Below, one piece after another: positions 54,139 through 60,398 of a stretch of 64,000 nt of DNA (the stretch's first letter is position 1; each line of letters starts with the position of its first letter). The notes beneath the pieces were generated by a model. That model was not told the DNA's origin. It made no database searches and saw only the letters and a list, made by a program, of their open reading frames with translations. The DNA is taken from positions 6,969 through 70,968 of the forward strand of contig CAWANO010000004.1 of NCBI GenBank assembly GCA_963783425.1, given 5' to 3'. The position numbers and the translations under genes are program-made. Source of the DNA: an uncultured delta proteobacterium (lineage in GTDB: Bacteria > Desulfobacterota > Desulfobacteria > Desulfobacterales > QNYZ01).

Positions 54139-54522
54139 TGGCTTTGTGTGCCAGGCTGGTAGTGGCCACGATGGTGTCGGGGTTGCGGTGGCTTGCCGCC
54201 GGTTATGATCGTGGTTAGCATATCGGCGTTGACGCTATGAAGATAAAGTCGCGTGTCATGATCTTTAATTCACTTGTTGTTCCCGACGGTTGGACGAAAC
54301 CGCTTCGCGGTAGTTTTCTGTTCAATAAACTTACTCTATAGCCCTTGCTGACCGCCTTGAGCGATGAAGCATGATTGATAATAATGAATCGCTTCGCTCT
54401 GCCTTCCATAAAAAGCCAATAGAATCCCACCGCTAATAAATCAACCCTCCACTATTTCGGTCTATTGCTGATCGTATAAAATACCTCCGTGTTTTTTTAA
54501 CCCCAAAGCAAGGAGGTATGAA

Positions 54523-55404
54523 GTGACTAAGTTGCGTGAAAAAATGATCAGGGCAATGGACTTGAAGAACCTCTCGGATCACACCAAACGCTCTTACCTG
54601 GGAGCGGTCACCGCACTGGCCAAGCACTATCGGCAATCTCCGGAAACAATCTCCGATAAAATGATCGACGATTACCTGCTCTATCTGAAAAACGAAAAAG
54701 GCAATGCGCCCGCTACTTGCTGCAGCGCTTTAAACGCACTTCGCTTTTTCTACACCCACGTGCTCGACAAGCAGATATCAGTTGATTTCAGCCTCTCAAA
54801 AAAGCCCCGCAGACTGCCCACCGTGCTCACCAAAGAGCAGATCTGGAAGATAATCTGCGCCCCGGCCAATCTAAAACACCGCCTTGTCCTGATGACCACC
54901 TATGCCGCTGGATTAAGAGCCGGTGAGGTGATGCGATTAAGGCCCGAGCATATTGACAGCAAACGCATGTTGATCAAAGTGGTCGACGGTAAAGGCCGCA
55001 AGGACCGCTACACCATGCTGTCACCAAAGCTTCTGGGCGAGCTGCGTGGCTATTATAAAAAGTGCCGCCCACAAACCTACCTGTTCCCATCGAATTATAA
55101 AAAGCACAACGATAAACCACTGTGCTACGAAACGGTGCGATCCATCTACGAAAAGGCCCGTAAAAAGGCCGGGATTAAAAACGGGCGGGGGCTGCACACG
55201 TTGCGTCACAGCTTCGCCACGCATCTGCTGGAAGCCGGTTACGATATCCGTAAAATACAAGTGTTGATGGGCCATGCGAGACTGACCACCACCATGATCT
55301 ACCTGCATGTGAGCCGCGAAACTCTGTCAAAAGTCCCCAGTCCCTTGGATCTTATTGACACTGAGCAGTCACACAGAAAGGACAGCCCCGATGGCCCAAA
55401 TTAA
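54523..55404 (+). CDS. Tyrosine recombinase (phage-integrase family) forming a pair with the IS91 transposase
   Basis: GTG start 6 nt after AGGAGG. Catalytic-region motifs are AGLRAGEVMRLRPEHID, LHTLRHSFATHLLEAGYDIRKIQVLMGHARLTTTMIYLHV. Confidence 0.85.
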   Translation: MTKLREKMIRAMDLKNLSDHTKRSYLGAVTALAKHYRQSPETISDKMIDDYLLYLKNEKGNAPATCCSALNALRFFYTHVLDKQISVDFSLSKKPRRLPTVLTKEQIWKIICAPANLKHRLVLMTTYAAGLRAGEVMRLRPEHIDSKRMLIKVVDGKGRKDRYTMLSPKLLGELRGYYKKCRPQTYLFPSNYKKHNDKPLCYETVRSIYEKARKKAGIKNGRGLHTLRHSFATHLLEAGYDIRKIQVLMGHARLTTTMIYLHVSRETLSKVPSPLDLIDTEQSHRKDSPDGPN

Positions 55405-56560
55405 ACAACACCGACTGGAGCTGGCCGTCGTTCTGAGAAAACATATCGCCGATTACCAAAACCAATACCCGCTGTGGCCCGAGCATCGCAAAATCGTATC
55501 TGACCTGCTAAACTGCCGCACCGTGCGTCTTGGCGGGCATATCGATCGGTGCAACCGCTGCGCCGCGCTGCGCATTGTCTATCATTCATGCCGCAATCGG
55601 CATTGTCCCAAATGCCAGCACATGCCGCGCGAACGATGGCTGGCGAAAAGAAAAGAAGAAATTCTATCGGCCAGCTACTTCCACGTCGTCTTTACCGTGC
55701 CCCATGAACTCAACGCTGCCATTTTAAACAATAAGAAAGTGATGCTCAATATCCTTTTTAAAGCCGCCTCCGCGACGCTTTTGACTTTCGGCGAAAATGA
55801 GCTCGGCGGTAAATTGGGCTTTATTGCGACCTTACATACCTGGGACCAGAAGCTCAACGCGCATTTTCATCTGCACTGCCTGGTGGCCGGCGGGGCGGTA
55901 TCTAAAGACGGTTCATCATGGATAGCTTGTAAAGGCGACTATCTTTTTAACATGCGGGCATTGTCTTTGGTTTTTCGCGGTAAGTTCATGGCGCTGATGA
56001 CCAATGCCAGCAAACGCGAGGATCTCAAGTTCGCCGCTGGCCAATACAAAAACCTTAAGGCCAGGCTGTATAAGAAAAATTGGATTGTCGATGTGCGCGA
56101 TCCGGTCAAAAGACCCGATCACGTTCTTGAATATATGGCGCGCTACACCCACCGGGTGGCCATTGCCAACAGCCGTATCACCGCCCTTAAAGACGCCATG
56201 GTGACCTTCAGCATTAAAAACCGAAAGAAAAATCGGACTCAACCGCTGACCATCACCGCCGTGGAGTTCATCCGGCGGTTTTTGCTCCACAGCCTACCGT
56301 CCGGTTTTGTCAGAATCCGGCATTACGGGTTTTTGGCCAATCGAAACCGATCGGCAAACATCAATGCCATCCGTAAATTGATGGGTTTGTCGGTACCGGC
56401 TGAAAAACCCATCGCTACGGCACAGCAGGTGATCCAGGAGCTGACCGGCACTGACATTACCGCCTGTCCATGCTGCCAGAAAGGTCGGATGGAATTGTAT
56501 CTGGAGATACCCAAAGTCTTGGCACGGCCACCCAACGCCCTTGCTTTTGGGGCCGCTTAG
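55391..56560 (+). CDS. tnpA: IS91-family (Y2 HUH, rolling-circle) transposase
   Basis: An N-terminal zinc-binding region (CNRCAALRIVYHSCRNRHCPKCQ), HFHLHCLV, and YMARYTHRVAIANSRI (tandem Tyr region). It overlaps the recombinase stop by 14 nt. Confidence 0.85.
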   Translation: MAQIKQHRLELAVVLRKHIADYQNQYPLWPEHRKIVSDLLNCRTVRLGGHIDRCNRCAALRIVYHSCRNRHCPKCQHMPRERWLAKRKEEILSASYFHVVFTVPHELNAAILNNKKVMLNILFKAASATLLTFGENELGGKLGFIATLHTWDQKLNAHFHLHCLVAGGAVSKDGSSWIACKGDYLFNMRALSLVFRGKFMALMTNASKREDLKFAAGQYKNLKARLYKKNWIVDVRDPVKRPDHVLEYMARYTHRVAIANSRITALKDAMVTFSIKNRKKNRTQPLTITAVEFIRRFLLHSLPSGFVRIRHYGFLANRNRSANINAIRKLMGLSVPAEKPIATAQQVIQELTGTDITACPCCQKGRMELYLEIPKVLARPPNALAFGAA

Positions 56561-57057
56561 GCGTCTTATCTGGTATTTGAATCGTTATTGTAGAAAACCA
56601 TAGGTGAATTACGCCCTAACTTGTCTGAAAGACTTTCAGTTGATGCAAAAATAGAGTGCAAATGGTGTTTTATGGCATCTAATCTCGTAAATAGTAATCC
56701 AACCCGCCTCTTATCAAAACCAGATCGTGGCATCTCGCCTGCAACTGGTCAAAAGCATCATGATTACAATACCCATATAAAAATATCATGCCAACACCGC
56801 CTCACCGCGGCTTCGCCCATCATCGTTTTATCAATCATCCCGCCCTTTAAAATCTCATCGTAAATTTTTCCCGCGACCAAACTGGAAAACCAATATCCTC
56901 AGTATTATGCTGCTGCGGGACAATAGATAAAACGCTTATTAGATATCACAGGTCGGGGACGCTTTCAAGCGAGCATGGATAACCCGCCCGGGGGGTGAGG
57001 GCGTCAAATGGATCGATTGGTAACCCCGACACCAAAATTATATTAAGGAGGAATGGC

Positions 57058-57531
57058 ATGACTGAAAAACCAGAAGCCGGCGATATCGCGCCGGCGTTTG
57101 AACTCAGTGACCAGGACGGTAAGACAGTGAAGCTGTCCGATTTCAAGGGCCAGCGGGTGGTGCTCTTTTTTTACCCCAAAGACAACACTTCGGGCTGAAC
57201 GTTGGAAGCCAAGGCTTTCAGCGCTCAGTTGAGCGAATTCGACAAACTGGATGCGGTGGTGCTGGGGGTGAGTCCCGACTCTAAGGCCTCGCACGTGCAC
57301 TTTATCGAACAACAGGATCTCAAGGTGCGCCTGCTCAGCGATCCTTGGCACGCGGCCATGGAGGTCTACGGTGTGTGGCAGCTGAAAAAGATGTACGGCC
57401 GGGAGTTCATGGGCGTGGTGCGCAGTACCTTTATCATCGACCGCAAGGGAAAGGTGACCGAGGTCTGGCGCAAGGTGACGGTGAAGGGGCACGTGGACGA
57501 GGTGCTCGAGCGCCTGAAAGAAGCCCGCTGA
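57058..57531 (+). CDS. bcp: Bcp-type peroxiredoxin with in-frame TGA (57196-57198) at the peroxidatic Cys position: candidate selenoprotein
   Basis: [87 protein letters not shown]... Track ORFs 56995-57198 and 57202-57531 are in the same frame. The TGA replaces the Cys of the PxDxTxxC motif, and there is no Cys codon anywhere else in the frame. Confidence 0.7.
57222..57235 (+). promoter_or_regulatory. Small hairpin cgctc-aguu-gagcg 23 nt downstream of the in-frame UGA (candidate SECIS apex)
   Basis: A 5-bp stem with a 4-nt loop containing GU. The loop lies about 29-32 nt after the UGA, inside the spacing range reported for bacterial SECIS elements. I could not fold a convincing extended stem by eye. 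Confidence 0.3.
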
Positions 57532-57819: not shown

Positions 57820-58444
57820 TAGTAATGATCTAAACCCTCCACCTCTGGTGGAGGACCCGGATAGGTTCTACCGATCCGGTGAGAAATAAAATAGGCTCAT
57901 TCTCCAAAGCCCCAACGGAGCCCAAAGGAGAATGAACCTATGCACGATTGGACGAGTTTATCGCACGTGCGATGGGATTGTAAATACCATGTGGTATTTG
58001 TTCCCAAGTATCGCCAAAAGAGATTATACGGCAAATTTCGGCGTAAAGTCGGTGACATATTCAAAGACCTATGTCGCCAAAAGGATATTGAACTGTTGGA
58101 AGGGCACTTGATGTCTGACCATGTGCACATGTGTTTGAGAGTGCCGCCGAAGTTCAGTATCGCGTTTGTAGTCGGATTCATAAAGGGTAAAAGCGCGGTG
58201 TTGATCCACCGTAAGATATTATCAACACGTCGCGTAAGCGGATTGCATTTCTGGGCCAGAGGTTATTGTGTGAGCACCGTCGGTTTGGATGAAAAGACCA
58301 TCCGCCAGTACATACGCGACCAAGAAAAGAGTGAAAAAGCACAGCTGGAATTAGATTTTAGCTAACTCGGATATCCGTTGGGGCTTTTTCCAGCCCCCCT
58401 CGGGGGGGCCACCTGATGCCTCCCGCTATGCGGGAGGAGAATCA
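57820..58444 (+). mobile_element. IS200-type (IS200/IS605 family) element; boundaries approximate
   Basis: The left-end hairpin is cctccacc-tct-ggtggagg (57836-57854) and the right-end hairpin is cctcccg-ctatg-cgggagg (57419+1000: 58419-58437). Both are CCTCC...GGAGG and they flank a Y1 transposase gene. A second hairpin ccggat..atccgg lies at 57857-57878. Confidence 0.7.
57940..58365 (+). CDS. tnpA: IS200/IS605-family Y1 (HUH) transposase TnpA
   Basis: Intact 141 aa: HVRWDCKYHVVFVPKYRQK...LLEGHLMSDHVHMCLRVPP...WARGYCVSTVG. Confidence 0.9.
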   Translation: MHDWTSLSHVRWDCKYHVVFVPKYRQKRLYGKFRRKVGDIFKDLCRQKDIELLEGHLMSDHVHMCLRVPPKFSIAFVVGFIKGKSAVLIHRKILSTRRVSGLHFWARGYCVSTVGLDEKTIRQYIRDQEKSEKAQLELDFS

Positions 58445-60324
58445 CGTGTGCCCGGCATGGGTAACGGCTTGGGGGTTAAAGTCCCCTGCGAGACCTGATG
58501 GCGGTAACCGCTAGCCAATGGCAAGGGCGTCCAGCGCGAGTTGGGGTCTGAAGGAAGCCGGCGGCAAAACTCCGATCCGAGGGACACGAACCGTATATAA
58601 GGCTGCGGCATTGGGGTAAGTCTACGTGACAAGACAAAGCCCATAGCCATCAAGCGGTGTCGTAGTAAATACGGCGGATGTGGAGTGGAGGCAGTTATCC
58701 TTACCCGGGGAGATCTGCAGCGCCGTCCTTAAAAAGGACGATGGGATCCGTAAGGAGACCAGATGGGGTTGCAGAAGTCAGCAGAGGTCATATTAGGGCC
58801 GCGGATCGGCCTGAAGGACCGAACATGTAGCCAGGGTAAGAACCCTTTGGATTCGTTAACATGATGATGCAGCAACTCCAATTAGAATTTTCATGGAACC
58901 GCGCTTTGAAGCCCAAGGGTGAAGCCCGTAGGGCAAAGGCAGCGGTGCATCAAGTGCCGGCGGCATCGGAGGCAGACGACCCGTTAAACCAAGTGACGAT
59001 GGAAGAGGTGATCCGCACAAAGAACCTCATGATCGCACTGAAACGAGTGCTGGCCAACAAGGGCAGCAGCGGCGTAGACGGCATGTCTGTGGAAGCGCTG
59101 GAGGATCATCTGAAGCGGCACTGGCCACAGATGCGCGAACAGCTCATCACTGGTGGATATAAGCCACAGCCGGTTATGCGGGTCTTAATACCGAAACCGG
59201 GCGGAGGAACCCGGGAGCTTGGGGTTCCGACCGTAATTGATCGCTTTATCCAGCAAGCCTTACACCAGGTGCTCAGTCCCTTTTATGATGAAACGTTTTC
59301 GGCCTCAAGCTTCGGCTTTCGGCCTGGCCGCAGTGCCCATCAAGCGGTTCGGCAGGCCAAACGTTACATTGAACAAGGGCATGAGTGGGTCGTGGACATC
59401 GATCTTGAGAAATACTTTGATCGAATTAACCATGACATTCTCATGAGCCGCCTGGCTCGTAGAATTTTGGACAAACGCATCTTGAAGCTGATCCGTTTGT
59501 ATCTACAAGCCGGAGTAATGGTGGATGGTGTTGTGATCAGGCGCCACCTGGGAACCCCGCAAGGTGGGCCACTTTCACCATTGCTCAGTAACGTTCTTTT
59601 GGATGAACTGGACAAAGAGTTGGAGCGGCGGGGTCACAAGTTCTGTCGCTACGCTGACGATGCCAATGTGTACGTTCGATCCGAGCGCGCCGGCCAGCGC
59701 GTCATGGAATCGGTGGAACGGTTTTTATGGAAGCGGCTAAAGCTCAGAATAAACCGCCACAAAAGTGCTGTGGACAGACCACAGCATCGGCAGTTTCTTG
59801 GCTTTAGCTTCACTTCTGGAAAACGGCTCAAGATCAAATTGTCGGATAAGGCATTGCAGTATGTGAAATACCGTATTCGACAGATCACGCGCCGTTCCAG
59901 AGGAGTTTCACTTTTGCAGGTTGTCAAAGAACTCAACATATATCTTACCGGCTGGATCGGTTATTATCGTCTGATCGAAACATCGACCACGCTAAGGGAT
60001 CTGGATAGTTGGATCCGAAGGCGGCTGCGATGTTTTGTGATGAAAAAGTGGATCAATAACTGTCACACCCGGCTCAAGAACCTTTGCCAGCTGGGTGTAA
60101 GCGAGACAAATGCCGCACCAGTAGCGTATTCTCGCAAAGGCCCTTGGGTTATGTCGAACTTCAAACCTGTTAAAGTTGCGATGCCCAACAGTTTCTTTGT
60201 ATCAAAGGGGCTTTTGTTCCTCAACGGTCGTCACACGTGTTTAATCAAATCTACATGAACCGCCATGTACGGACCCGTATGCATGGTGGTGTGGGAGGGC
60301 GAAGGCTGTGAGGCCTTCCCCTAT
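58445..60324 (+). mobile_element. Group II intron, class C-like (about 1.88 kb)
   Basis: The 5' end is GUGUG at 58445. Domain V candidate 60258-60291 (ccgccaugUAcg..cguaUGcauggugg) has a CGC rather than AGC triad. Domain VI stem gggagggc/gccuuccc (60293-60320) ends ..cuau. The RT ORF lies in domain IV, and the intron starts 7 nt after a stem-loop. Confidence 0.8.
58861..60258 (+). CDS. Group II intron reverse transcriptase/maturase (no endonuclease domain)
   Basis: Intact 465 aa. RT motifs are IPKPGGGTRELGVPTVIDRFIQQA, DIDLEKYFDRINHD, TPQGGPLSPLLSNVLLDELD, CRYADDANVY. A maturase X region follows (LTGWIGYY) and there is no HNH motif at the C-terminus. Confidence 0.9.
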   Translation: MMMQQLQLEFSWNRALKPKGEARRAKAAVHQVPAASEADDPLNQVTMEEVIRTKNLMIALKRVLANKGSSGVDGMSVEALEDHLKRHWPQMREQLITGGYKPQPVMRVLIPKPGGGTRELGVPTVIDRFIQQALHQVLSPFYDETFSASSFGFRPGRSAHQAVRQAKRYIEQGHEWVVDIDLEKYFDRINHDILMSRLARRILDKRILKLIRLYLQAGVMVDGVVIRRHLGTPQGGPLSPLLSNVLLDELDKELERRGHKFCRYADDANVYVRSERAGQRVMESVERFLWKRLKLRINRHKSAVDRPQHRQFLGFSFTSGKRLKIKLSDKALQYVKYRIRQITRRSRGVSLLQVVKELNIYLTGWIGYYRLIETSTTLRDLDSWIRRRLRCFVMKKWINNCHTRLKNLCQLGVSETNAAPVAYSRKGPWVMSNFKPVKVAMPNSFFVSKGLLFLNGRHTCLIKST

Positions 60325-60398
60325 CCCGATTGGTCAGCGTAAACCCGTTGCACAGGAGCCCTATTGGCCTAAGGTTTTCGTGTGGTTCTCGACAGAGG

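Follow-up and report, generated by a model that had tools for sequence, protein, structure and literature searches.

A single intact gene for a Bcp/PrxQ-type peroxiredoxin (bcp) was found in the window, that is, the whole 64,000-nucleotide stretch of DNA analysed here, and its in-frame UGA is predicted, with a probability of about 0.93, to be a selenocysteine (Sec) codon. A first-pass annotation had proposed a selenoprotein at this place, and the proposal is now supported by the Sec-decoding machinery of the genome, by a conserved TGA in related genes and by Cys-type sister genes. Coordinates of the features, and accessions of the contigs with close relatives of the gene, are collected in Table 1.

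Table 1. Features of the bcp locus, other Sec sites of the genome and contigs carrying close relatives of bcp
Feature	Position or accession	Strand	Remarks
Shine-Dalgarno AAGGAGG	57045-57051	+	6 nt before ATG 57058; read from sequence
bcp/prxQ-type peroxiredoxin gene, complete	57058-57531	+	157 codons + TGA stop (57529-57531), TAA right behind; P40-x3-T44-x2-U47, Arg122
In-frame TGA, predicted Sec, residue 47	57196-57198	+	peroxidatic-Cys column
Hairpin 1	57200-57223	+	10-bp stem, loop CAAG (57210-57213); -13.5 kcal/mol, pair probabilities near 1
Hairpin 2	57222-57235	+	CGCUC-AGUU-GAGCG, loop 57227-57230; 5 bp, -6.2 kcal/mol
Left block	54292-56943		tyrosine recombinase + IS91 transposase; inside inverted repeat CCCGACGGTT^ATCACAGGTCGGG; absent from L164
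Right block	~57824-60330		IS200 + group II intron (Rfam 58530-58819); absent from L164
Other Sec sites, window's genome	C15:3371-4297, C12:13670-14587, C13:9431, C1:137439, C1:1076134, C10:925369
Other Sec sites, continued	C10:558604, C1:370356, C1:361532, C10:802140, C9:90265, C6:20564
L164	ENA ERZ23498836
L165	ENA ERZ23877991		sequence same as L164
L166	ENA ERZ1688200
L167	ENA ERZ1688198
L168	Logan ERR11523668
L185	ENA ERZ1689013
L186	ENA ERZ23498704
L187	ENA ERZ1689009		k141_1566922

One reading frame across a TGA in the peroxidatic-cysteine column

The bcp gene is one 157-codon frame, and its Sec codon lies 138 nt from the ATG. As the first-pass annotation had stated, two listed ORFs, 56995-57198 (ending with the TGA) and 57202-57531 (starting with TTG), lie in the same frame and are parted by TGA-ACG alone, the joined frame contains no Cys codon at all, and the TGA sits on the Cys of the PxxxTxxC motif; the first two points were confirmed in the sequence, and the third by comparison with orthologs and solved Bcp structures. 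Promoter and terminator scans provided evidence neither way, as the one promoter-like match at bcp (0.7 expected by chance) is too near the ribosome-binding site and no terminator was found 3′ of the gene.

Public gene calls split bcp into exactly 46 + 109 aa, as would be expected if the locus made two products, one a 46-residue peptide that stops at the TGA, the other a protein of 109 residues begun at TTG 57202. Such a split would cut the PxxxTxxC/U loop at its last residue and leave neither piece a functional peroxiredoxin. Moreover, each of the 29 Sec-type sequences checked has the two pieces in one frame with a gap of three bases, the Cys-type sisters are single ORFs, and no ribosome-binding site was seen before TTG 57202 when the sequence was read by eye. 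Two separate products are thus extremely improbable.

Orthologs were then collected by a search that reads through stops, with a sample of 301 Desulfobacterales genomes (E <= 1e-30) for the order-wide survey. Of the ten top-scoring orthologs from related genomes, seven had a single TGA and three had none, and order-wide 52 other genomes had an ortholog, 40 of them flagged with a TGA (~39 after dropping L141). The flagged TGA of L141 is its normal stop and its peroxidatic codon is TGC, so it was rejected as a Sec form. When the column was checked directly, 21 orthologs had TGA and 20 had TGC/TGT, at exactly the same codon (22 Sec-type vs. 20 Cys-type sequences with the window's own included), and the orthologs ran on in frame past either codon, with no truncation. 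Three Sec-type orthologs, L145 (G167), G295 and G136, showed another stop (TAG or TAA) later in the match, which could reflect decay, an assembly error or a match extending past the true stop.

A contig homolog search with tblastn confirmation retrieved Cys-type sequences only (TGC in 43 and TGT in 27 of the 70 with a recognisable motif); since tblastn confirmation penalises in-frame stops, this Cys-only list reflects the bias of the method and does not speak against Sec forms. In the maximum-likelihood tree, about five switches between Sec and Cys were needed, and the well-supported branches force at least three; the window protein stands alone on a branch of length 0.34. Among species-representative genomes, the nearest protein is at most 67% identical to it, and the nearest Sec form 59%.

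Six other samples yielded closer relatives on seven additional contigs, which carry the same gene at 84.4–99.8% nucleotide identity, keep the TGA in all cases and have a reading frame open on both sides of it. Gene calls in these relatives place a 46-aa N-terminal product next to a 100–109-aa C-terminal one wherever the contig reaches far enough, and the protein database holds products of 98–110 residues (78–98% identity) that cover the part after the TGA only. The 3′ end of the L187 contig is a Nextera adapter (translated tail CLLYTSDAADD), by which its bcp call is falsely shortened. JGI metagenome contigs gave no match to a degenerate back-translation of a 16-residue bcp segment. Many of the substitutions 3′ of the TGA are synonymous (in L186, 30 synonymous vs. 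22 non-synonymous codons), so the downstream part has been selected as coding sequence.

Alternatively, a TGA could have entered what would then be a Cys-type bcp or a pseudogene, through an error in sequencing or assembly or through a recent nonsense mutation. The assembly does have frame problems elsewhere, as noted in the first-pass annotation: an FdhA gene (C10:557201-559211) is spread over several frames, and extra selD copies on small contigs (C13:24928-25848 and C14:3041-3746) contain up to seven stops or are split, which looks like error-prone contigs or decayed duplicates. However, an error of this kind would have to recur with an intact flanking frame in the seven further contigs, drawn from ENA and Logan and up to 16% diverged, and in the same column of the 21 more distant orthologs, and it does not account for the synonymous character of many substitutions after the TGA. 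On these sequence comparisons, an error or nonsense mutation appears close to refuted.

Family assignment and predicted enzyme chemistry

Family searches were run with Cys substituted for Sec. The bcp product matched Pfam AhpC-TSA (PF00578) with E = 1.5e-39 over residues 8-135 and Pfam Redoxin with E = 9e-22, and scored 146 bits against the NCBIfam Bcp equivalog NF006960, barely over the cut-off of 140. The best solved relatives are the Bcp/PrxQ structures 5enu, 3gkk and 5iiz, matched over nearly the full length with E values of 5.5e-34 to 5e-32. In the alignments, the TGA falls on the peroxidatic Cys of FYPKDNTPGC, and Arg122 (RSTF) on the Arg of ERSTF in 5enu and 5iox. The window protein thus shares with Xanthomonas campestris PrxQ (3gkk, 5iiz) and the Burkholderia protein (5enu) the FYPKDNTxGC segment, the Arg of RSTF and a C-terminal VKGH, while the peroxidatic Cys of these Cys-type structures is replaced by the predicted Sec.

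Resolving Cys residues of the atypical 2-Cys Bcp/PrxQ type are lacking in the window protein, both at +5 and in helix alpha-3. The +5 position after the peroxidatic residue, the resolving Cys site of E. coli BCP, is occupied by Lys52, and the second Cys of X. campestris PrxQ (NFCAKQ) corresponds to an Ile (HFIEQQ). Cys is likewise absent from the homologous region in all eight close variants. Because no resolving Cys is present, the window Bcp would be expected to work like a 1-Cys, here 1-Sec, enzyme.

The full-length Sec product would be a cytoplasmic enzyme of ~17.5 kDa. Its Sec47 selenolate, activated by Thr44 and Arg122, would attack the peroxide and be converted to a selenenic acid. An external partner (thioredoxin, glutaredoxin or a small thiol) would then reduce this acid in a one-Sec mechanism; recycling would have to come from outside, because there is no Cys anywhere in the protein.

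PrxU of Eubacterium acidaminophilum is the biochemically characterised Sec peroxiredoxin (Sohling et al. 2001, cited in PMC13188914). Similar to the window protein, PrxU has Sec in place of the peroxidatic Cys in a peroxidase of AhpC/TSA fold from an anaerobe. However, it belongs to another Prx subfamily; the window protein scored 54.6 bits against the PrxU model NF040737, below the equivalog cut-off of 270, and passed the Bcp equivalog model instead.

Selenocysteine decoding and the hairpins after the UGA

The window's genome (4.09 Mb in 19 contigs, 94% complete) contains all four of selA, selB, selC and selD, the genes whose presence the first-pass annotation had proposed to check. tRNA-Sec scored 76 bits, with the anticodon TCA assigned by ARAGORN, selA (614 bits) and selB (370 bits) have no internal stops, and two selD genes are present, each with one in-frame TGA (Sec-type). 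At least 12 other Sec sites, and at least 13 Sec codons with bcp included, were counted. They lie in the two selD, three Prx-like/thioredoxin-fold (motifs W-U-PYC, FTFV-U and FQ-U-PFC), three FdhA and four MvhD/FlpD genes, with one in-frame TGA each, at the expected active-site positions in the last three groups. The genome is selenoprotein-rich.

At the bcp UGA, SelB carrying Sec-tRNA(Sec) would be recruited by an mRNA hairpin just 3′ of the codon, so that this UGA would be decoded as Sec47; the UGA at 57529 lacks such a signal and would terminate translation. Two hairpins follow the Sec codon. The stem of hairpin 1 starts one base after the UGA and its loop 11 nt after it; this hairpin dominates the fold of the free mRNA, and the minimum-energy fold pairs the UGA too. 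The loop of hairpin 2 starts 28 nt after the UGA. The two hairpins overlap by two bases. Hairpin 2 is weak, with a predicted probability of 0.02 in free RNA and of 0.19 with 12 nt after the UGA occluded; for it to be the minimum-energy fold, ~12 nt behind the UGA have to be masked as ribosome-bound. The AGUU hairpin would form once the ribosome opens the stronger hairpin 1.

For comparison, the genome's 12 other Sec sites have a stem of 4–8 bp with a GGA, GGC, GUC, GGUC, GUU or AGUU loop 17–27 nt after the UGA, for example UUUCGGC-AGUU-GCCGAAA, GCGC-AGUU-GCGC and CUGGA-GUU-UCCAG. In detail, the AGUU loops lie at 17 and 25 nt, the GUU loop at 27 nt, and the GGA, GGC and GUC loops at 19–23 nt, which places the 28 nt of hairpin 2 at the far end of the range in this genome. 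Of random TGA triplets in the same genome, 1.1% are followed at 15–30 nt by any of these loops on a stem of 5 bp or more, and 0.05% if AGUU alone is counted. Since its loop type and position match and the background is low, hairpin 2 fits what the organism's SelB evidently recognises.

In the bSECISearch model, the apical loop lies 16–37 nt after the UGA and contains a G. Hairpin 2 resembles this model and the E. coli fdhF-type SECIS in its short G-U-containing loop and in a distance (28 nt) within the range. The fdhF-type element has a coaxial lower stem, whereas here a separate 10-bp hairpin stands between the UGA and the 5-bp stem. An extended lower stem for hairpin 2 (57214-57254) was considered and rejected, as it is broken in L186 by GG -> AA at offsets 53-54. 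Rfam gave no match to a SECIS family at gathering thresholds.

The rest of the family was also inspected, and every Sec clade has a hairpin with an apical loop starting 16–29 nt after the UGA. The clade of L027 and L145 has GAUUUCA-CGGGAU-UGAAAUC, and the KANTSGU clade has stems of ~5–8 bp of the type GUGCG-GGA-CGCAC; the L027 and KANTSGU clades share the loop CGGGA at the same place on different stems. In L154, a Cys member of the KANTSGU clade, the hairpin is lost. The best hairpin energy averaged -11.6 kcal/mol in Sec forms vs. -7.6 kcal/mol in Cys forms (Mann-Whitney p = 0.03, with relatives treated as independent).

Hairpin 2 is invariant in all eight variants, and offsets 21-46 are unchanged; as specific evidence for a SECIS this invariance was rejected, because the 5′ 40% of the gene varies little at synonymous sites. 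Third positions vary among the eight variants in 5 of the 46 codons before the Sec codon, in 3 of the 16 after it and in 56 of the 96 in the rest. The uneven synonymous variation has its boundary between 57058-57243 and 57244-57531 of the window, and L167 shows 0 differences over the first 224 nt and 21 over the remaining 250 nt. Recombination or RNA-level constraint could explain this pattern.

The only informative changes among the eight variants fall in hairpin 1. Four variants have A-U at its pair 57207/57216 and the other four G-C; in L185, a change at 57202 replaces U.G by C-G, and one variant change opens the apical pair. In a shuffle control, this covariation was not significant (85/500, with five distinct rows), so as a sign of selection it is suggestive. 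The A-U/G-C change hints that hairpin 1 may itself be selected, e.g., for ribosome pausing or for hiding the UGA from release factor 2.

Based on the SECIS spacing rule and the ribosome footprint, hairpin 1 would be unwound at decoding and hence should not be the SelB site at that moment; it is probably an accessory or competing structure. The putative SelB-binding (SECIS) apical hairpin is most likely hairpin 2. The first-pass annotation had named this same AGUU hairpin and called its distance SECIS-compatible, which holds; with the stronger, overlapping hairpin 1 in competition, its identity as the SECIS is probable. A two-state Sec signal, in which the AGUU site would form only after the ribosome melts hairpin 1, is a doubtful proposition on the present folding analysis.

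The UGA might also be read through without selenium, by a near-cognate Trp or Cys tRNA, or by Cys on tRNA-Sec if selenium is scarce, and the working enzyme would then be a Cys or Trp form in part or in full. Under selenium limitation, Cys can replace Sec at UGA in some systems, which speaks for such decoding in general terms. This genome, however, retains the complete Sec pathway and has at least 12 further genes that use it. A SECIS-like hairpin resembling those at its other Sec sites stands where one would be expected, and a Trp in place of the catalytic residue would leave the enzyme inactive. Selenium-free decoding is thus very unlikely, and incorporation of selenium at residue 47 would be expected.

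Genomic setting and place in the selenoprotein family

The surroundings of bcp were compared with those of its close relatives. The L164 contig is collinear with the window's genome except for two blocks present only in the latter, one on each side of bcp (Table 1), and the right block is also absent from L168 (99.3–99.8% identical). Because relatives that are collinear or near-identical lack them, the flanking blocks are insertions that arose recently, at the strain level, and whose empty sites can be recognised. Upstream of bcp, 114 nt have been preserved. In L185 and a JGI contig, the order is a DUF389 gene, bcp and an acetoacetyl-CoA synthetase-like gene, and as relatives keep this order without the elements, bcp as cargo of a mobile element was rejected. 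Judged from gene order, bcp is a native chromosomal gene with mobile elements inserted on both sides. In L187, bcp is immediately preceded by a gene for an IS200-type Y1 transposase (PF01797); IS200-family elements have therefore inserted at this locus at least twice.

Sec-type peroxiredoxins are a known class that includes Deltaproteobacteria, as the first-pass annotation had stated and three publications bear out. The Sargasso Sea analysis ranked ‘Peroxiredoxin (Prx), COG1225, TXXU’ second in abundance among the known selenoprotein families (Zhang, Fomenko, Gladyshev 2005, PMC1088965). A 2006 survey counted 12 Prx selenoproteins and five Cys-to-Sec events, with Syntrophobacter, Syntrophus, Anaeromyxobacter and Geobacter metallireducens among the hosts (Zhang et al. 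2006, PMC1794560), and a 2026 review lists a Prx family with PF00578 and PxxxTxxU (PMC13188914).

The window gene resembles this family (COG1225/Bcp) in its domain, in its PxxxTxxU motif, whose UGA occupies the column of the peroxidatic Cys, and in its host range, which is that of anaerobic Deltaproteobacteria. The AhpC/TSA domain, the UGA column, the catalytic Arg and selABCD were all found. The mixture of Sec and Cys forms within lineages is also alike, with ~5 switches estimated here vs. five events in the 2006 paper. The window gene differs in coming from an uncultured Desulfobacterales lineage and in standing on its own branch; nothing essential differs. It is a previously unannotated member of a selenoprotein family known since 2005, and it stands out, mildly, only in having two hairpins that compete downstream of the UGA. 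Which of them SelB uses is the sole new question, a minor one, that bcp raises for selenoprotein biology.

For annotation, the finding means that bcp, its relatives in at least six other metagenome samples and ~39 Desulfobacterales orthologs are split or truncated by standard gene callers, and because the genes are cut in this way, an antioxidant enzyme is missed. For the organism, bcp adds one Sec site to a selenoprotein-rich genome of the sulfate-reducer type, and its predicted product would be a clear case of a one-Sec peroxiredoxin devoid of Cys.
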